From Escherichia phage phiC120, in sequence record KY703222: a DNA stretch of 64,000 nt; one strand, written 5' to 3'. The notes beneath the pieces are model-generated. The model searched no databases. It saw only the letters and a list, made by a program, of their open reading frames with translations, and was not told where the DNA came from. Positions 5,144 to 55,167 of the stretch are shown here, in pieces. Position numbers and translations under genes: made by a program. The stretch's first letter is position 1, and every line of letters starts with the position of its first letter.

Positions 5144-5390
5144 AAAGCTCGACTACCTCTTCGTTTTCAGCTTCAAATTGGTCACGAGCATCTTTATGAT
5201 AAAGAGCTAACAAACGATTAAACATTTTTCCATCAACGCCAAGCTCTTCTTTAGCACGAGTACGAATGTCTTTAATCAGTTCATTATAACCAGAAATTTT
5301 AAGTTTGTTATCGGAAGCTTCCTTGACTAGTTTAGCCAGTTCTTCACCATGCACATCTTGATTAAATTCAACTGCTTCTTTCTTAGCCAT
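5121..5390 (-). CDS. dsbA: dsDNA-binding protein DsbA (89 aa from ATG 5390)
   Basis: ATG at 5390 has GAGGT RBS and gives the T4 size of 89 aa; ORF track start at 5408 would overlap rnh. Confidence 0.7.
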   Translation of the reverse strand: MAKKEAVEFNQDVHGEELAKLVKEASDNKLKISGYNELIKDIRTRAKEELGVDGKMFNRLLALYHKDARDQFEAENEEVVELYDTVFTK

Positions 5391-5397
5391 GTTTACC

Positions 5398-6315
5398 TCA
5401 GAATTCATTAATTACACTTGTTAATTTAGAAAGACCCGATTTTACAAAGTATGAATAAATCTTGCCTTTAGGTTGTTGTTTATACGAGTTATAATACTCT
5501 ATAATGGTTGAAGCAATATTATCAGGGATATAATCAAAATCAATGAGAACCAAATTTTCTTGATACCGTTTATATTCTTCTGCACTTAATAATACTTCAG
5601 CTTGAGAACGGTCATTAGCAATTGCTTCAATAATTGATGTTTTCATGCTTGGAGTTCGTTCACCTTCAACTCGAGTAAACCAGAAGTCACCACGAACTCG
5701 AACAGATGCAACACCATCTTTACGGTCGCCTTTAAGAATTTTAGTCATGCAATCAATTTCGGCAGAACCATTCTTAATTTTAACCCATTTTTTCTGTGGT
5801 GGCGACCACTGTTTAACGTTAGGATATTTGTGTAATTGTGTAAAGTCACCATCTGATGCAACAATACACACCTTATGACCAGCTAATGACAAATATTTAG
5901 TTAATACACCGATATGGTCATCCGCTTCGTATTTGTCAATATCCATTACAACATATGGCATATATTTCTTAATCTCATCAACAACTTGATGAAGTGCAGT
6001 AAAATATCCTTCCCAATCCCACTTTGAAGCTTCACGATCGGTTTTACGATTTTTCTTATAATAATAAGCAAAGTCACGACGCCAATATCCAGAAGTAGCG
6101 TTATCCATGCACAATACAAATTTTGTATAACCTTGCTTACGGAACATCACTACGTTTTTACGAATTGAATTCAAGACTACGTGACGAACCATCGGAACAG
6201 TAATTTTATCACCCTCTTCAAAGTTGTTTAATGCAGCTGCCAATGCAATGTTACTAAAGTCTGCAAGCGCAATACCTTCTTTGTAATCTTCATCCAACAT
6301 CATTTCTAAATCCAT
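5398..6315 (-). CDS. rnh: RNase H (5'-3' exonuclease)
   Basis: 305 aa as in T4; synteny before gene 34. Confidence 0.9.
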   Translation of the reverse strand: MDLEMMLDEDYKEGIALADFSNIALAAALNNFEEGDKITVPMVRHVVLNSIRKNVVMFRKQGYTKFVLCMDNATSGYWRRDFAYYYKKNRKTDREASKWDWEGYFTALHQVVDEIKKYMPYVVMDIDKYEADDHIGVLTKYLSLAGHKVCIVASDGDFTQLHKYPNVKQWSPPQKKWVKIKNGSAEIDCMTKILKGDRKDGVASVRVRGDFWFTRVEGERTPSMKTSIIEAIANDRSQAEVLLSAEEYKRYQENLVLIDFDYIPDNIASTIIEYYNSYKQQPKGKIYSYFVKSGLSKLTSVINEF

Positions 6316-27114: not shown

Positions 27115-28215
27115 TTACGCTGTGAAGATTTTATCCCACATCGCAACAACTGCATCTCGGTTATACTTCTTCCATACTGCTTCAGCACGTTTAACTCGAG
27201 CTTCGTACGTGTCAGTGAATTCTAATACAGCTTTTGTGTAAAGCGCAACTACTTCTTTCTTAGGAGTAGAGGAATCAATTTCTACACGCACAGTATCTGG
27301 GTCATATTCGAATGTCGCATGCGGATAATCCTTAAAAACTAACTGAATTACAGGGACACCTTTAGAAATGGCTTCAATAGAACTATTCTCTACCGTACCT
27401 GTGTCAGGACACGTATTAATAAGTGCTTTAGCTGTTTTAAGACGTTCCATAATTTCACTGTGTGGAGCATCAATAATAACAGGATACTTAGCCGGTGGTG
27501 CCCATTTGCTTGGACAATAACCAATACCATTTTCGCCTAGTGCTTTAATCGCTTCAAGAGCAACATCAGTACGACGCATTTTAGTGTCATAACGTTGTGC
27601 ACTAATAATCAGATCAGTCGCCGGAAGAACTTCAGGTTTCTCATTCAAACAAATAACCGGATAATCTTCGGCTTCAAACAACGGATTTGCTCGCCAATAA
27701 TCATAATCAATTTTGTCAGTCAGACCTGAAGTCATATAACAATATTTGCGTTCAAATTCACGGAAGGCTTTAGTAGGAGCATAACTCTTACCACCGTTCT
27801 TATGAATTTGAATAGTCTGGTCCCAAATTTGAACAATGCCACGAGATACCGGTTCAAATGGTGTTGCCATAAAATTCTTATGAACTTTAGAGAGGCCCGC
27901 GTCTTTAATTGCCTGAACAGTTAGTTTGGTCGGTTCCATTGTAACAACGAAATCGTACTCATTAATGCCGGCTAGTTCAACAATCTTACGAGCCATAGTA
28001 TAACTCATACCTAGACTGAATTTAGTCAGATGACCAACAGGATGATGATTAACCTTCCAATCACCAAATGTGTCATTATCAAAACCGATATAATCAATAT
28101 CGGCACCGATAGAAACTAAATATTTCAACACATTTAAATGTACTGCTTCAAGACCACCTTGTACACGTTCAGGATTAAATGGGACTGCACGAGATGGGAT
28201 AAACATAACTTTCAT
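27115..28215 (-). CDS. GT-B fold glycosyltransferase (candidate DNA hmC glycosyl/arabinosyl transferase)
   Basis: 366 aa; C-terminal TGTVENSSIEAISKGVPVI resembles the GT4 catalytic signature; no counterpart at this position in T4. Confidence 0.7.
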   Translation of the reverse strand: MKVMFIPSRAVPFNPERVQGGLEAVHLNVLKYLVSIGADIDYIGFDNDTFGDWKVNHHPVGHLTKFSLGMSYTMARKIVELAGINEYDFVVTMEPTKLTVQAIKDAGLSKVHKNFMATPFEPVSRGIVQIWDQTIQIHKNGGKSYAPTKAFREFERKYCYMTSGLTDKIDYDYWRANPLFEAEDYPVICLNEKPEVLPATDLIISAQRYDTKMRRTDVALEAIKALGENGIGYCPSKWAPPAKYPVIIDAPHSEIMERLKTAKALINTCPDTGTVENSSIEAISKGVPVIQLVFKDYPHATFEYDPDTVRVEIDSSTPKKEVVALYTKAVLEFTDTYEARVKRAEAVWKKYNRDAVVAMWDKIFTA

Positions 28216-48518: not shown

Positions 48519-48616
48519 TGTATTTTTCCATAGGCATCATTATATTTTACTCATGTTTAAAAGATAAGATGATTATATACTAAGGGTTATACAGCATTTA
48601 AAACTTTAAATGGCTC

Positions 48617-49165
48617 TTAACGAGCCCATTTGATGATTTCTGTAATCAAATCATTACGTTCGCTTGCATTAAATCCTATAACTTTGTTAGCACCATCATG
48701 ATTAAGTAATTGATACGTTTGGATTTTGTTATGAATTGCAAACTCTTCAAAATGTGAAATGACTGTATTAAAACCGAATGAAGACAAAGTAATAAGGTCG
48801 TCTTCAAAACTTTCAGTCATTTCGTTACGTGTTAAAATAATTGTGAACACGTCATGGTTTTGGCAAAGACGAACATAATCCTGTTCATAAACGTCAAGAA
48901 CCGAGTCAGCATCTTGTCGAATACGTCCATAAACCCAGTTACTAATATATCCACGGTCTAACAGATAAATCTTAGTAGGGTCTAAATAATTCAACATCGT
49001 TTCGAAACAACCAACTTCATTTCGAGACTTAACATCGAAACGTCCATCAACTGTTCGTTTAGGGAAATCAATCTTTACATATCTTTCACTAATTTCCATT
49101 ATGTCATTAATGAAAGTTGTTTTACCAGCATTATCCGGGCCATCTACTAAAATAATTTTAGCCAT
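48617..49165 (-). CDS. P-loop kinase, thymidylate-kinase-like fold (Walker A GPDNAGKTT, DR-like LLDRGYISNWVYG)
   Basis: 182 aa; GAGGAA RBS; sits where T4 has beta-glucosyltransferase. Confidence 0.55.
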   Translation of the reverse strand: MAKIILVDGPDNAGKTTFINDIMEISERYVKIDFPKRTVDGRFDVKSRNEVGCFETMLNYLDPTKIYLLDRGYISNWVYGRIRQDADSVLDVYEQDYVRLCQNHDVFTIILTRNEMTESFEDDLITLSSFGFNTVISHFEEFAIHNKIQTYQLLNHDGANKVIGFNASERNDLITEIIKWAR

Positions 49166-49166
49166 T

Positions 49167-50066
49167 TTATTCCTCGATTACGACATCTTCATATTTAGGT
49201 ATATTATACGGTGAAGAAATTAAAGCATTAAAGTAGATGAACTCACCAAGACCTGGATGAAATACTTCTTCAGGATTTTCGAAATATTGAATCTTCGGAC
49301 GTCCTTTAAGAATTTGATAGTACTCAGTTTTAGTTGGTTTAAAAATTCGAATCAACGCTTCTTCAGGATACTTATTTCTGTCGAAGCTATTATTTGGATC
49401 GGTTATATAAAGCGGTTGGCCTAATTGAATTGCACATTCAACCACTTGTTCAAAACGATAGCACGGGTCACTAATTCGAAATGGATGAAAAATACCATCT
49501 AGATGAATAGGAGCCAAATCACCTACAAGACGCTGCATGATGGAAGGACGTATAACTTTCTGCGTTACGATAATCTTATTACCATCTGCACCTGCGTTAA
49601 CCAGCACTTCTTTTTGACGTTCATTCAACACAGTAGTTTGAAGTGAACGATTAACCGACAACATGTCGGTTTTTAAGAATTCGTCAATATAAAAACGTGG
49701 TTTATTAGGGTCTGCAGTGATATTGAAATTGAATTCTACATCAAAAGCGCCGTCATATCCAGTGATATCTGTGATTAGAAAATCACAATCATAATAAGCA
49801 ATTAATGAATCAACCACAAATTCATTTTCAGACCAGAAATATTTACGGGTGTTATACGCGTTATCTTTATACCATAATGGAACAAACTTAAATTCTGGGA
49901 AAAGACGTTCACATTCTTTAATATCAGATGCATTACGTGGATATGTAATCACATCACCTGGATTAGCACGGTGCAAATGAAGTTGGAAGTTGCCATCCTT
50001 AAGGATAGCATACTGTCCAGTTTCATAAGACCGCATACTCAAGATTGGTACGCGGAAAATAGCCAT
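49167..50066 (-). CDS. Hypothetical protein (299 aa); candidate modification enzyme in the beta-gt position
   Basis: ORF track; TAATG coupling with gene 42; no recognisable motif. Confidence 0.45.
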   Translation of the reverse strand: MAIFRVPILSMRSYETGQYAILKDGNFQLHLHRANPGDVITYPRNASDIKECERLFPEFKFVPLWYKDNAYNTRKYFWSENEFVVDSLIAYYDCDFLITDITGYDGAFDVEFNFNITADPNKPRFYIDEFLKTDMLSVNRSLQTTVLNERQKEVLVNAGADGNKIIVTQKVIRPSIMQRLVGDLAPIHLDGIFHPFRISDPCYRFEQVVECAIQLGQPLYITDPNNSFDRNKYPEEALIRIFKPTKTEYYQILKGRPKIQYFENPEEVFHPGLGEFIYFNALISSPYNIPKYEDVVIEE

Positions 50067-50782
50067 TAGTCAAGGAATCCTTTAACATAATCAAAATCAC
50101 GTTCAAACACATGGGCACTTACCATGGTATGAGTATAATCACCAACTTCTACACCACATTCGTTAGCGATATAATGAAGTAATTTTCCTTGGAGATAAAA
50201 ATCCAACTGCATAACAACAGCACAGTTCTGGGAACGCATATGACAGTGGGTATAAAGCTTACCATCACGAATATAATAAGTCACTGAGTCAGTACATGGA
50301 TATTCAAGTGTTTCGTCTGAATCAAGCAAAGCCTGATCAGAACTTTCTAGAATTTGGAACACAACTCTTCGAGAGTTAGGCTTCTCTTTAAGTTCTTTTA
50401 GAAGAGCTGGTAATTGGGCCGCAATGCGAGGACCATAGAAAGTGTTGAAGTTCGCCGGCAAAACATCTGATTTTGGTTTAGAAATAAATTTAGCGACATT
50501 AGGATATGCCTTAAACGCTTCTTCTGCGTTGGTACCACCAGAAATCATAAACTTCCAGAAGTCTTCGGCATATTCATAAGAGATGCGATTAATACGTGGG
50601 TCGGTCATTTTGAATGATGATGGAGTGTCAACAACTACGGTCATAGACCCAATTTCATTACAACGTCCAATACGAGAATCAGTTACGAATTCTGGGTTTT
50701 CTAAAATTTCACGATTGACTGCTTTAAATGCGGTTTGAAAATCTGCGGCTTTGATATATTTCATTGTGTTATGTTTTCCCAT
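50066..50782 (-). CDS. 42: dCMP hydroxymethylase gp42 (thymidylate-synthase fold)
   Basis: 238 aa (T4 246); TS-like C-terminal pattern CTDSVTYYIRDGKLYTHCHMRSQN...HVFERDF; GAGGT RBS. Confidence 0.8.
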   Translation of the reverse strand: MGKHNTMKYIKAADFQTAFKAVNREILENPEFVTDSRIGRCNEIGSMTVVVDTPSSFKMTDPRINRISYEYAEDFWKFMISGGTNAEEAFKAYPNVAKFISKPKSDVLPANFNTFYGPRIAAQLPALLKELKEKPNSRRVVFQILESSDQALLDSDETLEYPCTDSVTYYIRDGKLYTHCHMRSQNCAVVMQLDFYLQGKLLHYIANECGVEVGDYTHTMVSAHVFERDFDYVKGFLD

Positions 50783-50824
50783 GTTTACCTCAATACAATT
50801 TATTATATACTCAATTCGTAAAGC

Positions 50825-51064
50825 TTATTTGAATTTCTTGACAATGTTGATATAACGTAAAGCTTCAGCATCGATACTTCCAAGAACACTATGAAGAAAT
50901 GCATCAGCGTAGTATTCCAATTGAACAGGTTCTTTAATCACTTTAGCCGCTTTAGTTTCAAAAAGGCCCATCAGGGCCTTTTTAAGAATTTGTTCATTAG
51001 TGTTCAGTTTCATAGTCAAAATCTCTTCATTAAGTTGGTGGTTAAAAGTTTTTCTAGAAATCAT
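50825..51064 (-). CDS. Hypothetical protein (79 aa)
   Basis: ORF track; ATGA overlap with upstream gene. Confidence 0.4.
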   Translation of the reverse strand: MISRKTFNHQLNEEILTMKLNTNEQILKKALMGLFETKAAKVIKEPVQLEYYADAFLHSVLGSIDAEALRYINIVKKFK

Positions 51065-52221
51065 TCCGGGTATCTCAAAGCGTCATCAGAGTTAGTTATA
51101 TCAATAATAGATATAGAGTTTTCTGCTAACCCGTTTTTAGATAATTGACGTTTATAATATCTTTCACAATATGTACACGTCGTCCCGCAGATTTCATTAG
51201 CACAATCGAAATCTGGATGTCTGAACCACCTTTTTTCTAAAAAGCCATCTAACAAAGAGGTTTCAATATTTACTGTATGTGAAAACTCAGTCTCATTTTC
51301 AAGAGTGAAAATAGTCTCTAAAGGCTTCCACAGTTCTAACAAATTACCTTCAAACTTTTCAGAAGCGTATGCTTCAAGAACTTTCAAAATGTAGTCTGTG
51401 CTACCTGTACGTCCTGAAACTTTGAATTGAGTGATACCAATATCATTATAAAGTTTCAAATCTTGAGGACGAACAAAACGAGTTCTCAACCAGTTAAATG
51501 GGTCTGTATCACGAGCTTTAATACAGTGCTGCATAGGATATCCGTTTAAGGATTTAGCATCATCAGCGGTAACATCAGTACTATGGAAAATATAGCAAGA
51601 GTCACGATAGCTACAATGTGTTGTATACCCTTTACCAGCATTAGAACAGAACTCATTTACAAGAACTTCAAATATTATATTGTTCTTATTGCAAAACTCT
51701 GCTGCACGCTTCAGGAAAGAAACTGAACGGTTCTTATGAATTCCACAGCAGACCTTTTTGATATTATACTGGTCATGCAAGTATTTGATTTGAGTTACAG
51801 CATCGACATGTAGAATTGTTGAAACTTCAATCTCAATGTCTTTATTGACTTCACGAACAATTTCCATAACAACAGGGTTAGCGATAGTAATACGCCATAC
51901 GCCTATTGACCAAAGATACTGAACATAATCCTGAATAGCTTTCTTCTTCCACTCAACTAGTTCTCTTTTTGAACCAGGATTTATCGTGTTGAGTGTATAG
52001 TTAAAGCAAATACCTAATTCGTTACAACGTTTAACGTAATCTTCTAACATCTTTTTGTCAACGTCAGGAAGCCTAAAATCAGGTCTGGCTGCTACAAAAG
52101 CCATTTCTCTTGTAGAGCCATATACTTCGTTTATCAAGCTATTAGGATAAGTTTTATTGAGCTCTACGATTTTATCGAGAAGAGCTAAATCAAAATTCGT
52201 TCCGATTTTAAAAGTATTCAT
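51061..52221 (-). CDS. Cys-rich hypothetical protein (386 aa from ATG 52221; ORF-track start 52236 is GTG); candidate enzyme of the modification cassette
   Basis: C-terminal CANEICGTTCTYC (C-x4-C-x3-C-x2-C) plus other conserved Cys; no confident fold assignment. Confidence 0.45.
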   Translation of the reverse strand: MNTFKIGTNFDLALLDKIVELNKTYPNSLINEVYGSTREMAFVAARPDFRLPDVDKKMLEDYVKRCNELGICFNYTLNTINPGSKRELVEWKKKAIQDYVQYLWSIGVWRITIANPVVMEIVREVNKDIEIEVSTILHVDAVTQIKYLHDQYNIKKVCCGIHKNRSVSFLKRAAEFCNKNNIIFEVLVNEFCSNAGKGYTTHCSYRDSCYIFHSTDVTADDAKSLNGYPMQHCIKARDTDPFNWLRTRFVRPQDLKLYNDIGITQFKVSGRTGSTDYILKVLEAYASEKFEGNLLELWKPLETIFTLENETEFSHTVNIETSLLDGFLEKRWFRHPDFDCANEICGTTCTYCERYYKRQLSKNGLAENSISIIDITNSDDALRYPE

Positions 52222-52278
52222 TTTTTTGCATCTCACGTTAATTGATGCGATGGTTTTTTGCAGGTCTTACTTAAATTA

Positions 52279-52665
52279 TTATAGATTCGGTTTATATGAT
52301 TTAAATGTTTCGAATTCGCCTTTATTCATAAGAGCTTTGAATTCGTCAGGACGCATAGCTTTGTCGTCGATAATCCAATCATATACTGGTTTATGTGTTA
52401 GCAAATTATGGTACTTCAAGCCAATGTTTGCCAAGTTCTGAATCAGACTTGGGAGAATGTCAATTGCTATACGACCAGGACCTACTGACTTCATACCGCG
52501 AGCAGTGTAAAGCGTTATGGTATGCCCTGCATCATACAGGGCATTAATGGCAGTCACCATTTCGACGTCCGGTTTGAAGTTCACGTAATCACGATTGTTA
52601 TTCCACTCTGTTATACAATCATCGACGTCAAAACAAAGATTAAGCATGTTTTCTACACGGTGCAT
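52279..52665 (-). CDS. HAD-superfamily phosphatase-like protein (about 128 aa)
   Basis: N-terminal motif I FDVDDCIT (DxDx[T/V]); start uncertain (ATG 52665 overlaps upstream stop as TAATG; alternative ATG 52680). Confidence 0.5.
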   Translation of the reverse strand: MHRVENMLNLCFDVDDCITEWNNNRDYVNFKPDVEMVTAINALYDAGHTITLYTARGMKSVGPGRIAIDILPSLIQNLANIGLKYHNLLTHKPVYDWIIDDKAMRPDEFKALMNKGEFETFKSYKPNL

Positions 52666-54350
52666 TAGATTCGTTCCCATTGATGAGTGATATCGCCACC
52701 GATTGGACGATAGGAAACACCAGTTTCTTTATCAGTTAGTACCCATTTACCAGGATTTTTTGTAATCAGAGTAGCCGTTACAGGTTCTGCTACGTCATAA
52801 CTAATAGAGCCATCTTGAAGTACACGGCCCATGTTACGTAATTGCTTAGTCAGAAGTTCCATACCTTTATAATATGCGGCCACCGCTTTAAGTGGATTAT
52901 TCTTGAAATAACCACCTAATGCAATCCAGATAATTGCCACTGCCAAATGATGATACTCGTTAAACGAACTCATCTTTCCATATTTGTAAACTAATGGATT
53001 GATGTTAATAGTCACATTACAAGTTGTTTCATCAATAGTAAACTGGCCCCAGGTCGGATTAGCGTTGAATTCATCATAACCTGAAACAGCATAAAGCACT
53101 TTAGCTTCATCATACAATTTTGGCCCGTAAATCTTGGTTTCGCCAAAATATCCACGAGGGTCGATAAACTTGACTTCGCCGTTATCAGTAATCATAGTAT
53201 TACTGAAGTTCGGGTCACCGTGAATAACAGAGTACTGTCCCTGAGAACGGTTATGATAACGAATAAGATGTTCTAAAGCTTGTTTCAACATTGGCTTCAG
53301 ACGTCCAATCTTAGTGTAGTTCACGTGTGTGATTTTACCAAATGAATCAATCAATGGCTGAATGCTTTCACAACGATCAATAACTTTCGTATAGAACTCT
53401 TTAGTGAAATCACGACGAACAGTTTCAGGACTTACAAAATAAGTGTCTGTACTGAATTTCAGTGCATCTAAAATTGCATCAACAATTTGTGGACGAGCAA
53501 GACTTGATTTGGATTTAATATATTCAAATGCCGGCTTACCTTTAATACGTTCCATTTCAAAATTATTTTCATTTACCGAAACTAACTGAGGAACCGAATC
53601 TGATTTCACTTTCAAATACCATGAAATCTCATCTTTTTGAAGAGCTCGACCTTGTTCGGTTAACGCGAATTTAGTTACAGTTTCTTCGCCAATTTCAACT
53701 GCATTAAAACTACGATTAAGTTCACGAACTTCATGAGCTTTTTCAAGTTTAGGCATATCACCTAAATCAATTAGATTCATAAGCTCTGATTTATTGAATG
53801 CGCTGCTGTAAAGGAATTCTACGAAATCACGTCCTTTGCAGTATTCATGAATTTCCTCATCAGTAGAACCCATATAGAATTCCCAGTCTTTGAACTGATA
53901 AATTCCTACAACATTACCGCCTGTTGCACCTACATTAGTGATATTTTCACCGTCGAAATTATATCGACATTCGTCACCCTTAACATAGATTGCGTTAACA
54001 TTCCAAGACCATGAACCAAAATCAGGAATAATATCGCACCAGTTAACAACTACGTTATGGCCGTCTAAATCTTTATGTAATTTAGCAAGAGCATAAGCAG
54101 AACCATACGCTTCATCAACTGTACGAATAGTCACATTGAACCCTTCTTGCTCACAATAAGCTCGAACAGTTTCAGCAAATTTTGAATGAACTACTACAAT
54201 AATTTCATCTGCGCCAAGGTCAGAATAAATTGTATACAAATTGCTCAGAATAGTGTCTTGTTTATAGTTAACAAGCACCTTAGGAATATGGTGAGTAATT
54301 GGATATAAACGAGTTGCCAATCCGGCACCAAGAATAACAGCTTTTTTCAT
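52665..54350 (-). CDS. Bifunctional sugar-1-phosphate nucleotidyltransferase (N-terminal) / APH-fold anomeric sugar kinase (C-terminal)
   Basis: 561 aa; N-terminal MKKAVILGAGLATRLYPIT (G-x-G-T-R-L-x-P-x-T as in RmlA-type NTP transferases); C-terminal HGDPNFSN...KFIDPRG kinase catalytic/DFG-like loops; GAGGA RBS. Confidence 0.7.
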   Translation of the reverse strand: MKKAVILGAGLATRLYPITHHIPKVLVNYKQDTILSNLYTIYSDLGADEIIVVVHSKFAETVRAYCEQEGFNVTIRTVDEAYGSAYALAKLHKDLDGHNVVVNWCDIIPDFGSWSWNVNAIYVKGDECRYNFDGENITNVGATGGNVVGIYQFKDWEFYMGSTDEEIHEYCKGRDFVEFLYSSAFNKSELMNLIDLGDMPKLEKAHEVRELNRSFNAVEIGEETVTKFALTEQGRALQKDEISWYLKVKSDSVPQLVSVNENNFEMERIKGKPAFEYIKSKSSLARPQIVDAILDALKFSTDTYFVSPETVRRDFTKEFYTKVIDRCESIQPLIDSFGKITHVNYTKIGRLKPMLKQALEHLIRYHNRSQGQYSVIHGDPNFSNTMITDNGEVKFIDPRGYFGETKIYGPKLYDEAKVLYAVSGYDEFNANPTWGQFTIDETTCNVTININPLVYKYGKMSSFNEYHHLAVAIIWIALGGYFKNNPLKAVAAYYKGMELLTKQLRNMGRVLQDGSISYDVAEPVTATLITKNPGKWVLTDKETGVSYRPIGGDITHQWERI

Positions 54351-54391
54351 GTTGAAGTCCTCATTGGTAAGTAGGTGTATTGTACACTATT

Positions 54392-54535
54392 CTAGTTAAA
54401 GCATTCATACTTTGCCTGTAGACCAATCATAATCCATCCAATTACAAGTGTTGGAATCATTACTGGAGCCGTTAAGCTCCAGTAGATAGTCATGACAAGC
54501 ATCAATAGTAAAAGTCCTATTGTTATTGCTTTCAT
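54392..54535 (-). CDS. Small membrane peptide (47 aa)
   Basis: Own translation MKAITIGLLLLMLVMTIYWSLTAPVMIPTLVIGWIMIGLQAKYECFN; ATGA overlap with the SIS gene. Confidence 0.35.
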   Translation of the reverse strand: MKAITIGLLLLMLVMTIYWSLTAPVMIPTLVIGWIMIGLQAKYECFN

Positions 54536-55167
54536 TGTTCGCCTCGTAACATGGCACCTAGTGCACCGCCAGGGTGGAACTTAAGGAAGTCATTAGAGGT
54601 AAATCCACGTTCAGACGAAAGGTTGATAGCAAACGTATCGATAAGCGCTAACAACAATGTAGTGGACATAGTCGGAGCTAAAGAGTTCTCGTCAACTTCT
54701 ACCGCGATACCGGTACAGAACGTATAATCAAAAAGAGCTTCGTATTCTTGTGGAATGTCAGGGTTACAATGTAACAGAATCTGTTTAACCTGAGGACGAA
54801 TCATACGAAGATGTTTAGCAACACCTATCATTTCTTCAGTCTTACCAGAACGACTGATGTGAACTAATACATCATTAGGTGCAATAAATCCTGCATCCCC
54901 ATGAGAATAATGCCCAGTGTTCAAATACATGCTAGGAATACCTAGTGAAGCAAAAGTCTCGGAAGCTTTAGTTGCGATATTAGCATTCTTACCAACACCT
55001 GTAATAATTACACGACTTTCATAATTACTCAGTCCAGGGCGGCGAAGAGTTTCAAGAATAGCATTATATCGGGCAGGGTTTTGACTAATTACTTTGGCCA
55101 TAGCGGCCAAAGAAGAAGCTTGTTTTATGATTGCGTCAATAGCGATAGTAATAGGAGTAGTTTTCAT
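54532..55167 (-). CDS. D-arabinose-5-phosphate isomerase, SIS domain only (KdsD/GutQ-like)
   Basis: 211 aa; aligns by eye to E. coli KdsD SIS domain (GVGK...IA.K...TFAS.G.PS......HGD.G...P.DV...ISRSG...E...) and ends in the KdsD hallmark FHPGGALG. Confidence 0.8.
   Translation of the reverse strand: MKTTPITIAIDAIIKQASSLAAMAKVISQNPARYNAILETLRRPGLSNYESRVIITGVGKNANIATKASETFASLGIPSMYLNTGHYSHGDAGFIAPNDVLVHISRSGKTEEMIGVAKHLRMIRPQVKQILLHCNPDIPQEYEALFDYTFCTGIAVEVDENSLAPTMSTTLLLALIDTFAINLSSERGFTSNDFLKFHPGGALGAMLRGEQ

Follow-up and report, generated by a model that had tools for sequence, protein, structure and literature searches.

The closest described relative of the locus considered here is the DNA-modification gene cluster of phage RB69, in which arabinose is ether-bonded to C5 of cytosine, the underlying base being 5-hydroxycytosine and not hydroxymethylcytosine (Lee et al., Nucleic Acids Research 2026; PMC13326640). 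The RB69 protein gp48, a flavin-binding thymidylate-synthase homolog, was shown experimentally to convert deoxycytidine monophosphate (dCMP) to 5-hydroxy-dCMP with oxygen from O2; gp51, gp52:53 and gp55 make UDP-arabinofuranose, gp3 is a second transferase, and Table 1 of that study lists gp45 as a "nucleotide kinase" (thymidylate-kinase structural matches) and gp46:47 as "arabinosyltransferase 1" (GT-B structural matches) (PMC13326640). 5-Hydroxydeoxycytidine (5hodC) enters Escherichia coli DNA upon expression of the hydroxylase, and later arabinosylation steps take place on DNA (PMC13326640). Lee et al. credit He et al. (Nat Chem Biol 2026) with the enzyme structure of phage HY126 and the sugar-activation steps, and cite Mahler et al. 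(Cell Host Microbe 2025) for related phages (PMC13326640). Phage HY126 carries the kinase and transferase genes as well (He et al. 2026). Here we analyze the corresponding locus in a 64,000-nucleotide stretch of Escherichia phage phiC120 (sequence record KY703222; hereafter the window), where a 182-amino-acid (aa) P-loop kinase and a 299-aa protein lie between uvsX and a gene of the thymidylate-synthase family.

The phiC120 locus and its RB69 counterpart

The two open reading frames (ORFs) are on the minus strand, the kinase at 48617..49165 and the 299-aa protein at 49167..50066, each with an ATG start, and follow a 238-aa thymidylate-synthase homolog at 50066..50782 on the same strand (Pfam Thymidylat_synt, 2.3e-15), the predicted dCMP 5-hydroxylase or 5-hydroxy-dCMP synthase. 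The original prediction had described both ORFs, their motifs and a TAATG coupling, all of which are borne out by translation and sequence: the 182-aa translation includes GPDNAGKTT and LLDRGYISNWVYG, and the 299-aa gene opens within the TAA of the gene before it (GAC TAA TGG). A single base separates the stop codon of the 299-aa gene from the kinase ATG (GAGGAATAA A ATG), with GAGGAA just 5' of the kinase start, and a GAGG ribosome-binding site precedes the hydroxylase ATG at 50782. Downstream of the kinase is uvsX (Pfam T4_UVSX_C, 1.1e-38). Neither ORF is a chance ORF: by tblastn, 342 phage records contain a homolog of the kinase and 347 a homolog of the 299-aa protein, and the genus counts are nearly identical.

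The 7.1-kb region around the locus has 99% DNA identity to Mosigvirus phiE142 and 98% to many other Mosigvirus genomes; judged by this identity, the window comes from a Mosigvirus, an RB69-like phage. At the protein level, identity to RB69 is 99% for the kinase (gp45), 99.3% for the 299-aa protein (ORF046 plus ORF047, gp46:47) and 99% for the hydroxylase (gp48). The kinase also has 98.4% identity to its HY126 counterpart, and the hydroxylase 98% to PDB entries 9IQC/9IR2/9IQU. The order and neighbours of both ORFs also match RB69, and there is no substantial difference between the two clusters: in the RB69 record a frameshift, which Lee et al. attribute to sequencing error, divides the transferase between ORF046 and ORF047, whereas phiC120 has one intact 299-aa ORF. 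By these comparisons the locus is almost certainly an RB69-type arabinosyl-5-hydroxycytosine gene cluster.

The upstream gene had been labelled gene 42. When aligned by MAFFT with ThyA of E. coli and with T4 gp42, its product has E143, C146, R166, S167, N169 and D177, and T4 gp42 has D143, D169 and D177 at the same positions; these residues are numbered from the multiple alignment, anchored on the conserved R166-S167, and pairwise BLASTP to ThyA is one position off. N169 is the diagnostic residue put forward by Lee et al. (PMC13326640). The label must therefore be replaced, the protein being of the flavin-dependent 5-hydroxy-dCMP synthase type (N169; 99% identity to RB69 gp48) and not a hydroxymethylase. 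Nor is the locus unexplored: both genes are already tabulated, with putative functions, by Lee et al. (2026; PMC13326640). The frame of hydroxymethylcytosine and glucose in which they had been placed is not applicable, as the phage is RB69-like and the RB69 base is arabinosylated 5-hydroxycytosine (PMC13326640).

The comparison with T4 itself was correct as to position. T4 has uvsX-segA-beta-gt-42 at the equivalent map position, so that the interval between uvsX and the synthase gene holds segA and, next to gene 42, beta-gt; T4 gene 42 and beta-glucosyltransferase share with the phiC120 genes the position between gene 43 and uvsX. The two systems also follow a common logic, in which a thymidylate-synthase homolog yields a C5-oxygenated dCMP and a GT-B enzyme puts a sugar on that oxygen. 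They differ in chemistry, with a 5-hydroxyl made through flavin and O2 (N169) in phiC120 versus a 5-hydroxymethyl group made through folate (D169) in T4, and in the sugar, arabinofuranose in RB69-type phages versus glucose in T4, which has no second kinase at this position. A T4-like phage has exchanged hydroxymethyl/glucose for hydroxyl/arabinose chemistry at an identical map position, which alters which bacterial defences are escaped; this exchange has already been published.

For both the kinase and the 299-aa protein, searches of Pfam, NCBIfam and PDB sequences returned nothing significant, and the informative comparisons were PHROGs and fold. The fold of the kinase is closest to thymidylate kinases, in agreement with the prediction of a thymidylate-kinase-like P-loop enzyme, and the protein matches PHROG 761 "thymidylate kinase", as in its RefSeq annotation. 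Its P-loop, of the form GxxxxGK[ST], is G9-P-D11-N12-A-G14-K15-T16 and is invariant in 21 homologs, as are F34-P35-K36, followed by R37, and D70-R71, followed by G72-Y73. The stretch from the P-loop to FPKR aligns by hhalign with that from the P-loop to FPER in human thymidylate kinase (probability 93%), and we infer from this family likeness that FPxR and DR contact the phosphate of the nucleoside monophosphate. The fold, the N-terminal P-loop, FPxR and the DR motif are likewise shared with cellular and viral thymidylate kinases (for example PDB 2plr, 2v54 and 5x7j), from which the phiC120 protein differs in its low identity (8-19%), its shorter length, its lack of a clear basic LID segment except for an invariant R113, and its gene context, a pathway for cytosine and not thymine. 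Its isoelectric point (pI) is 4.9. No sequence or fold likeness to the T4 gp1-type deoxynucleoside monophosphate (dNMP) kinase was found, and outside the 5-hydroxycytosine phages the only relatives detected were marginal matches to SPbeta-type YorR (E about 3e-3).

The 299-aa protein had been proposed, with no obvious motif to go by, as a possible second transferase, and its predicted structure (predicted local distance difference test score 95.1) is indeed that of a GT-B (GT4-like) glycosyltransferase, with two Rossmann-like domains and an inter-domain cleft. It has no match to Pfam (Glycos_transf_1 or Glyco_trans_4), NCBIfam or PDB sequences even with a 47-sequence profile. Alignment of the homologs shows invariant R197, K246 and H270-P271-G272 in the C-terminal half, candidate residues for binding of the nucleotide sugar. 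T4 beta-glucosyltransferase lies outside the top 60 structural matches of the model, no closer in relation than other GT-B enzymes. The family is acidic throughout, with a median pI of 5.14 versus 9.05 for T4 beta-glucosyltransferase; pI is a weak discriminator between DNA-acting and nucleotide-acting transferases, as acidic members occur among the DNA-acting second transferases too. We assign the two genes firmly as the kinase and the first transferase of the glycosyl-5-hydroxycytosine pathway.

A three-gene core across phage lineages

To place the locus among other phages, we scanned with profiles 58 IMG/VR loci containing a transferase homolog, together with isolate and metagenome loci, over flanks of up to 8 kb; this survey is the part of the analysis that adds to the literature. 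Among informative loci with a transferase of 33% identity or more, 54 of 54 have the kinase, immediately behind the transferase or elsewhere in its operon (L053 and L055, both of which end inside the transferase gene, were left out). The genes occur in two arrangements: hydroxylase-transferase-kinase with overlapping genes, and, in the Dhakavirus, Marfavirus and Proteus types, HAD-kinase-(U32)-hydroxylase-transferase. Moreover, nine of 11 remote loci, in which the transferase is 24-28% identical, have a P-loop ORF of 168-213 aa abutting the transferase, with a thymidylate-kinase-like P-loop of the form G-x-D-R-x-G-K-D/T; in one of them (L063) this ORF exceeds the Pfam PF02223 threshold (34.7 versus 27 bits). 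The thymidylate-synthase homologs that neighbour these transferases all have N169, save for one with S169 and one genuine ThyA. Hydroxylase, transferase and kinase are a translationally coupled core kept across distant phage lineages, and this three-gene signature is usable for spotting 5-hydroxycytosine phages in metagenomes.

The core is also kept where arabinose genes were not detected. Five loci with full 8-kb flanks (L038, L043, L048, L049 and L051) contain hydroxylase, transferase and kinase only, with no arabinose-activation gene detected, and the kinase is therefore tied to the core that makes the base and adds the first sugar, and not to sugar activation. Similarly, Rhizobium phage RL38J1, the sugars of which are hexoses, shares the three-gene core with phiC120 as gp214-216 (kinase, galactosyltransferase 1 and 5-hydroxy-dCMP synthase; PMC13326640), and L064-L066 and L068 have an N169 synthase, a transferase and then a thymidylate-kinase-like ORF with the P-loop GLDR(T/S)GKD. 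In such RL38J1-type loci the transferase is about 26% identical to that of phiC120, and the kinases can scarcely be aligned (hhalign probability 28%). The occurrence of this core with hexoses makes it independent of arabinose. Closer to phiC120, TH1_062-064 of Shewanella phage Thanatos share its gene order, with a synthase, a transferase 47.5% identical and a kinase 44% identical; the authors of that work report UDP-xylose pyrophosphorylase activity for the transferase homolog and leave the kinase undiscussed (PMC12838424).

The Pootjesviridae-like loci (L064 2932-3480, L065 6039-6611 and L068 461-1009) have a second small kinase, with the P-loop GYKNSGKT and weakly similar to T4 gp1 (E 5e-4), about 0.5-1.2 kb upstream of the N169 synthase, in addition to the thymidylate-kinase-like ORF after the transferase. 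Both kinase types therefore co-cluster with the pathway in a non-T4 lineage.

A few loci depart from the common content. A candidate transferase-kinase fusion in L058 (7452-9107) was rejected, the 551-aa protein being a HAD phosphatase (DFDG...GDD) joined to a first-transferase domain (residues 185-520, hhalign probability 99.8%); no kinase was found within 8 kb of it. In L060, the ORF after the remote transferase (5248-6201) begins with a GAGPAG dinucleotide-binding motif and resembles UDP-galactopyranose mutase, a hint of a hexose donor in furanose form; S169 is found in the synthase beside it. On a 122-kb metagenomic phage contig (L009; 4739-5293 and 5303-6004), a Flavodoxin_2 or FMN-reductase-like gene (Pfam 1.7e-13) stands directly upstream of the N169 synthase, transferase and kinase; it fits the flavin dependence of the hydroxylase and suggests that certain phages encode the flavin reductase themselves.

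Substrates of the kinase and the transferase

The coupled unit, in the order dCMP 5-hydroxylase, GT-B glycosyltransferase and thymidylate-kinase-like kinase, is the conserved core of the RB69-type pathway that swaps cytosine for O-arabinosylated 5-hydroxycytosine. The 299-aa enzyme would attach the first, base-proximal arabinose to the 5-hydroxyl, its acceptor most likely being 5-hydroxycytosine already in DNA, as for the T4 glucosyltransferases on hydroxymethylcytosine. The 182-aa enzyme would be the cassette's own pyrimidine dNMP kinase, taking 5-hydroxy-dCMP to the diphosphate, and would let the modified nucleotide enter the triphosphate pool regardless of which further kinases are available from phage or host, making a horizontally mobile cassette self-sufficient. 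We hold this division of labour, with the kinase acting on 5-hydroxy-dCMP and the transferase on DNA, with middling confidence. Among the roles listed in the original prediction, a second dNMP kinase or a kinase for a modified nucleotide fits best, and the roles of sugar kinase and DNA-base kinase are disfavoured.

Several points weigh against this division. The kinase falls below the curated thymidylate-kinase models, with no match to Pfam PF02223 and a score of 16.6 with TIGR00041, for which the cut-off is 83.25 bits. RB69 gp159, a T4 gp1-type dNMP kinase, already turns 5-hydroxy-dCMP into the diphosphate (PMC13326640), so that a second kinase for this step looks redundant. The ortholog of the 299-aa transferase in phage DLP3 was inactive in vitro on DNA containing 5-hydroxycytosine (data not shown in PMC13326640), and the Thanatos ortholog TH1_063 made UDP-xylose from UTP and xylose-1-phosphate in vitro (PMC12838424). 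In addition, no published experiment showing the substrate of a gp45-type kinase was found. According to the Figure 3 legend of the preprint (bioRxiv 10.1101/2025.06.16.659550), the "cognate dNMP kinases" expressed together with the hydroxylase were RB69 gp45 and DLP3 gp78, whereas the legend, text and methods of the journal version give gp159 and gp169 instead (PMC13326640); because we take the journal version as authoritative, we count no published data on gp45.

The main alternative, possible though less likely, is that glycosylation is pre-replicative, with the transferase arabinosylating free 5-hydroxy-dCMP, the kinase being specific for a bulky product that gp1-type enzymes cannot handle, the polymerase incorporating the resulting nucleotide and only the second arabinose being added on DNA. 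The ability of the gp1-type kinase to handle 5-hydroxy-dCMP, together with the coexistence of gp1-like and thymidylate-kinase-like ORFs in the Pootjesviridae-like loci, is in its favour, as is the inactivity of the DLP3 first transferase on DNA, and Lee et al. state that they cannot tell a first arabinosylation on the mononucleotide from one on DNA (PMC13326640). The order of the translationally coupled genes (hydroxylase, transferase, kinase) would also be the order of the reactions, the adjacency of transferase and kinase is the most conserved feature of the module, and the acidity of the transferase family points weakly in the same direction. When present in DNA, 5-hydroxycytosine causes mutations and is acted on by base-excision repair, and never exposing it would be an advantage. 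However, expression of just the hydroxylase and a dNMP kinase is enough for 5hodC to enter the DNA of E. coli, and the later sugars are added on DNA (PMC13326640). Moreover, the cassette is shared by phages whose polymerases are unrelated (that of L057, for instance, is DnaE-like), and each polymerase would have to accept a glycosylated deoxynucleoside triphosphate, and the kinase precedes the hydroxylase in the Dhakavirus and Marfavirus types. To our knowledge, all known phage DNA glycosylations are post-replicative. If the pre-replicative route were true, it would provide the first example of a phage that makes a sugar modification of its DNA at the level of the nucleotide, with unprotected 5-hydroxycytosine never exposed in the genome, and it would explain why a second kinase is fixed to the transferase in every 5-hydroxycytosine phage. 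The co-travel of the kinase with the transferase, with or without arabinose genes, makes the kinase a handle for where the first sugar is added.

An ordinary role as a thymidylate kinase, or as a general dNMP kinase, in which the enzyme boosts the supply of deoxythymidine triphosphate only and is placed here by an accident of genome organisation, is improbable. Its fold, its match to PHROG 761 and its RefSeq annotation are those of a thymidylate kinase, but it scores under the curated thresholds for such enzymes, is found in the same phages as the 5-hydroxycytosine transferase (342 versus 347 records, of the same genera), adjoins that transferase in unrelated phage lineages and is missing from T4. 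T4-like phages, moreover, already make deoxythymidine diphosphate with gp1.

Roles on the sugar side, in which the kinase would act on an arabinose intermediate or recycle uridine nucleotides and the 299-aa protein would be a UDP-pentose pyrophosphorylase, are very unlikely. The synthesis of UDP-xylose by Thanatos TH1_063 speaks for them (PMC12838424), but the fold of the 299-aa protein is GT-B and not that of a nucleotidyltransferase, the cluster already has a nucleotidyltransferase/sugar-kinase protein and a phosphatase (AfhE and AfhF; PMC13326640), and the kinase retains nucleotide-monophosphate-binding motifs. Kinase and transferase are, moreover, retained without detected arabinose genes, and also in the hexose-bearing RL38J1 (PMC13326640).

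Finally, we give almost no credence to a kinase that, like the 5-hydroxymethyluracil DNA kinases, would phosphorylate the base 5-hydroxyl in DNA to make a leaving group: a small P-loop kinase gene does stand beside a DNA-modification transferase, but the bridging ether oxygen derives from the 5-hydroxyl of 5-hydroxycytosine (18O2 labelling and nuclear magnetic resonance; PMC13326640), which makes that hydroxyl the nucleophile and not a leaving group, and the protein is acidic (pI 4.9) and keeps the mononucleotide-binding motifs of thymidylate kinases; the argument against a DNA kinase is an indirect one, from these motifs and the ether chemistry.

Neighbouring pathway genes and minor observations

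The genes for UDP-arabinofuranose (isomerase, kinase/nucleotidyltransferase and HAD phosphatase; ORFs 52279..55167) and a second GT4-type transferase are all present in the window, on the minus strand. The 133-aa HAD-type phosphatase at 52279..52680 (PHROG 1238, 8e-43) is the ortholog of RB69 gp51 and HY126 AfhF, the latter having its role in the step from arabinose 1,5-bisphosphate to arabinose-1-phosphate (PMC13326640). At 52665..54350 is the 561-aa bifunctional nucleotidyltransferase and sugar kinase, orthologous to RB69 gp52:53 and to AfhE, with a Pfam NTP_transferase match at residues 3-99 (7.4e-10) and weak APH/fructosamine-kinase matches at residues 308-409; the AfhE-type protein makes UDP-arabinofuranose (PMC13326640). 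The 211-aa arabinose-5-phosphate isomerase at 54532..55167 is the ortholog of RB69 gp55 (phmmer to RB69p055, 2e-136; existing annotation). The 366-aa second glycosyltransferase at 27115..28215, the RB69 gp3 ortholog, matches PDB 9iqz/9ir0 "phage HY126 glycosyltransferase" (phmmer, 9.8e-249), and the gp3-type enzyme adds the second arabinose (PMC13326640, PMC6024577). In phage NRG-P0074 (L001 8320-9081), a homing-endonuclease gene lies between the HAD phosphatase and the bifunctional sugar-activation gene, an insertion absent from the window.

The window also encodes a 391-aa U32-family protein at 51061..52236 (minus strand; Pfam Peptidase_U32, 7.5e-11; PHROG 5757), the ortholog of RB69 gp50, which Lee et al. 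name a "sugar or heterocycle reductase" (PMC13326640). The U32 family includes RlhA, TrhP and UbiU/V, enzymes of C5 or ring hydroxylation that work without O2 (PMC5727448, PMC6599085, PMC10990095). Five remote loci have the kinase and transferase beside a U32 gene (L057 8954-10051, L059 5783-6865, L063 8885-9973, L061 11076-12179 and L067 11520-12608), with no N169 thymidylate-synthase homolog within 8 kb. The phage U32 proteins of the remote loci are 46-51% identical and have eight invariant cysteines, including C197, C208, C214, C238 and C345-x4-C350-x3-C354-x2-C357. These features make the U32 protein a possible alternative hydroxylase of cytosine C5, perhaps an anaerobic one.

With respect to expression, an automated promoter and terminator scan of the locus gave nothing exceeding shuffled expectation. 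A candidate T4-type middle promoter of the hydroxylase-transferase-kinase unit, picked out by eye at 50802..50826 on the minus strand (AAGCTTTA, 11 nucleotides, TATAAT), is absent from the sigma-70 scan output because it has no -35 hexamer. The kinase stop codon lies in the loop of a 9-bp imperfect hairpin at 48596..48635 (minus strand; AAATGG(G)CTC GTTAA GAGCCATTT, then AAAGTTTT), which is absent from the output of the automated terminator scan, and a TATAAT box is present upstream of uvsX.

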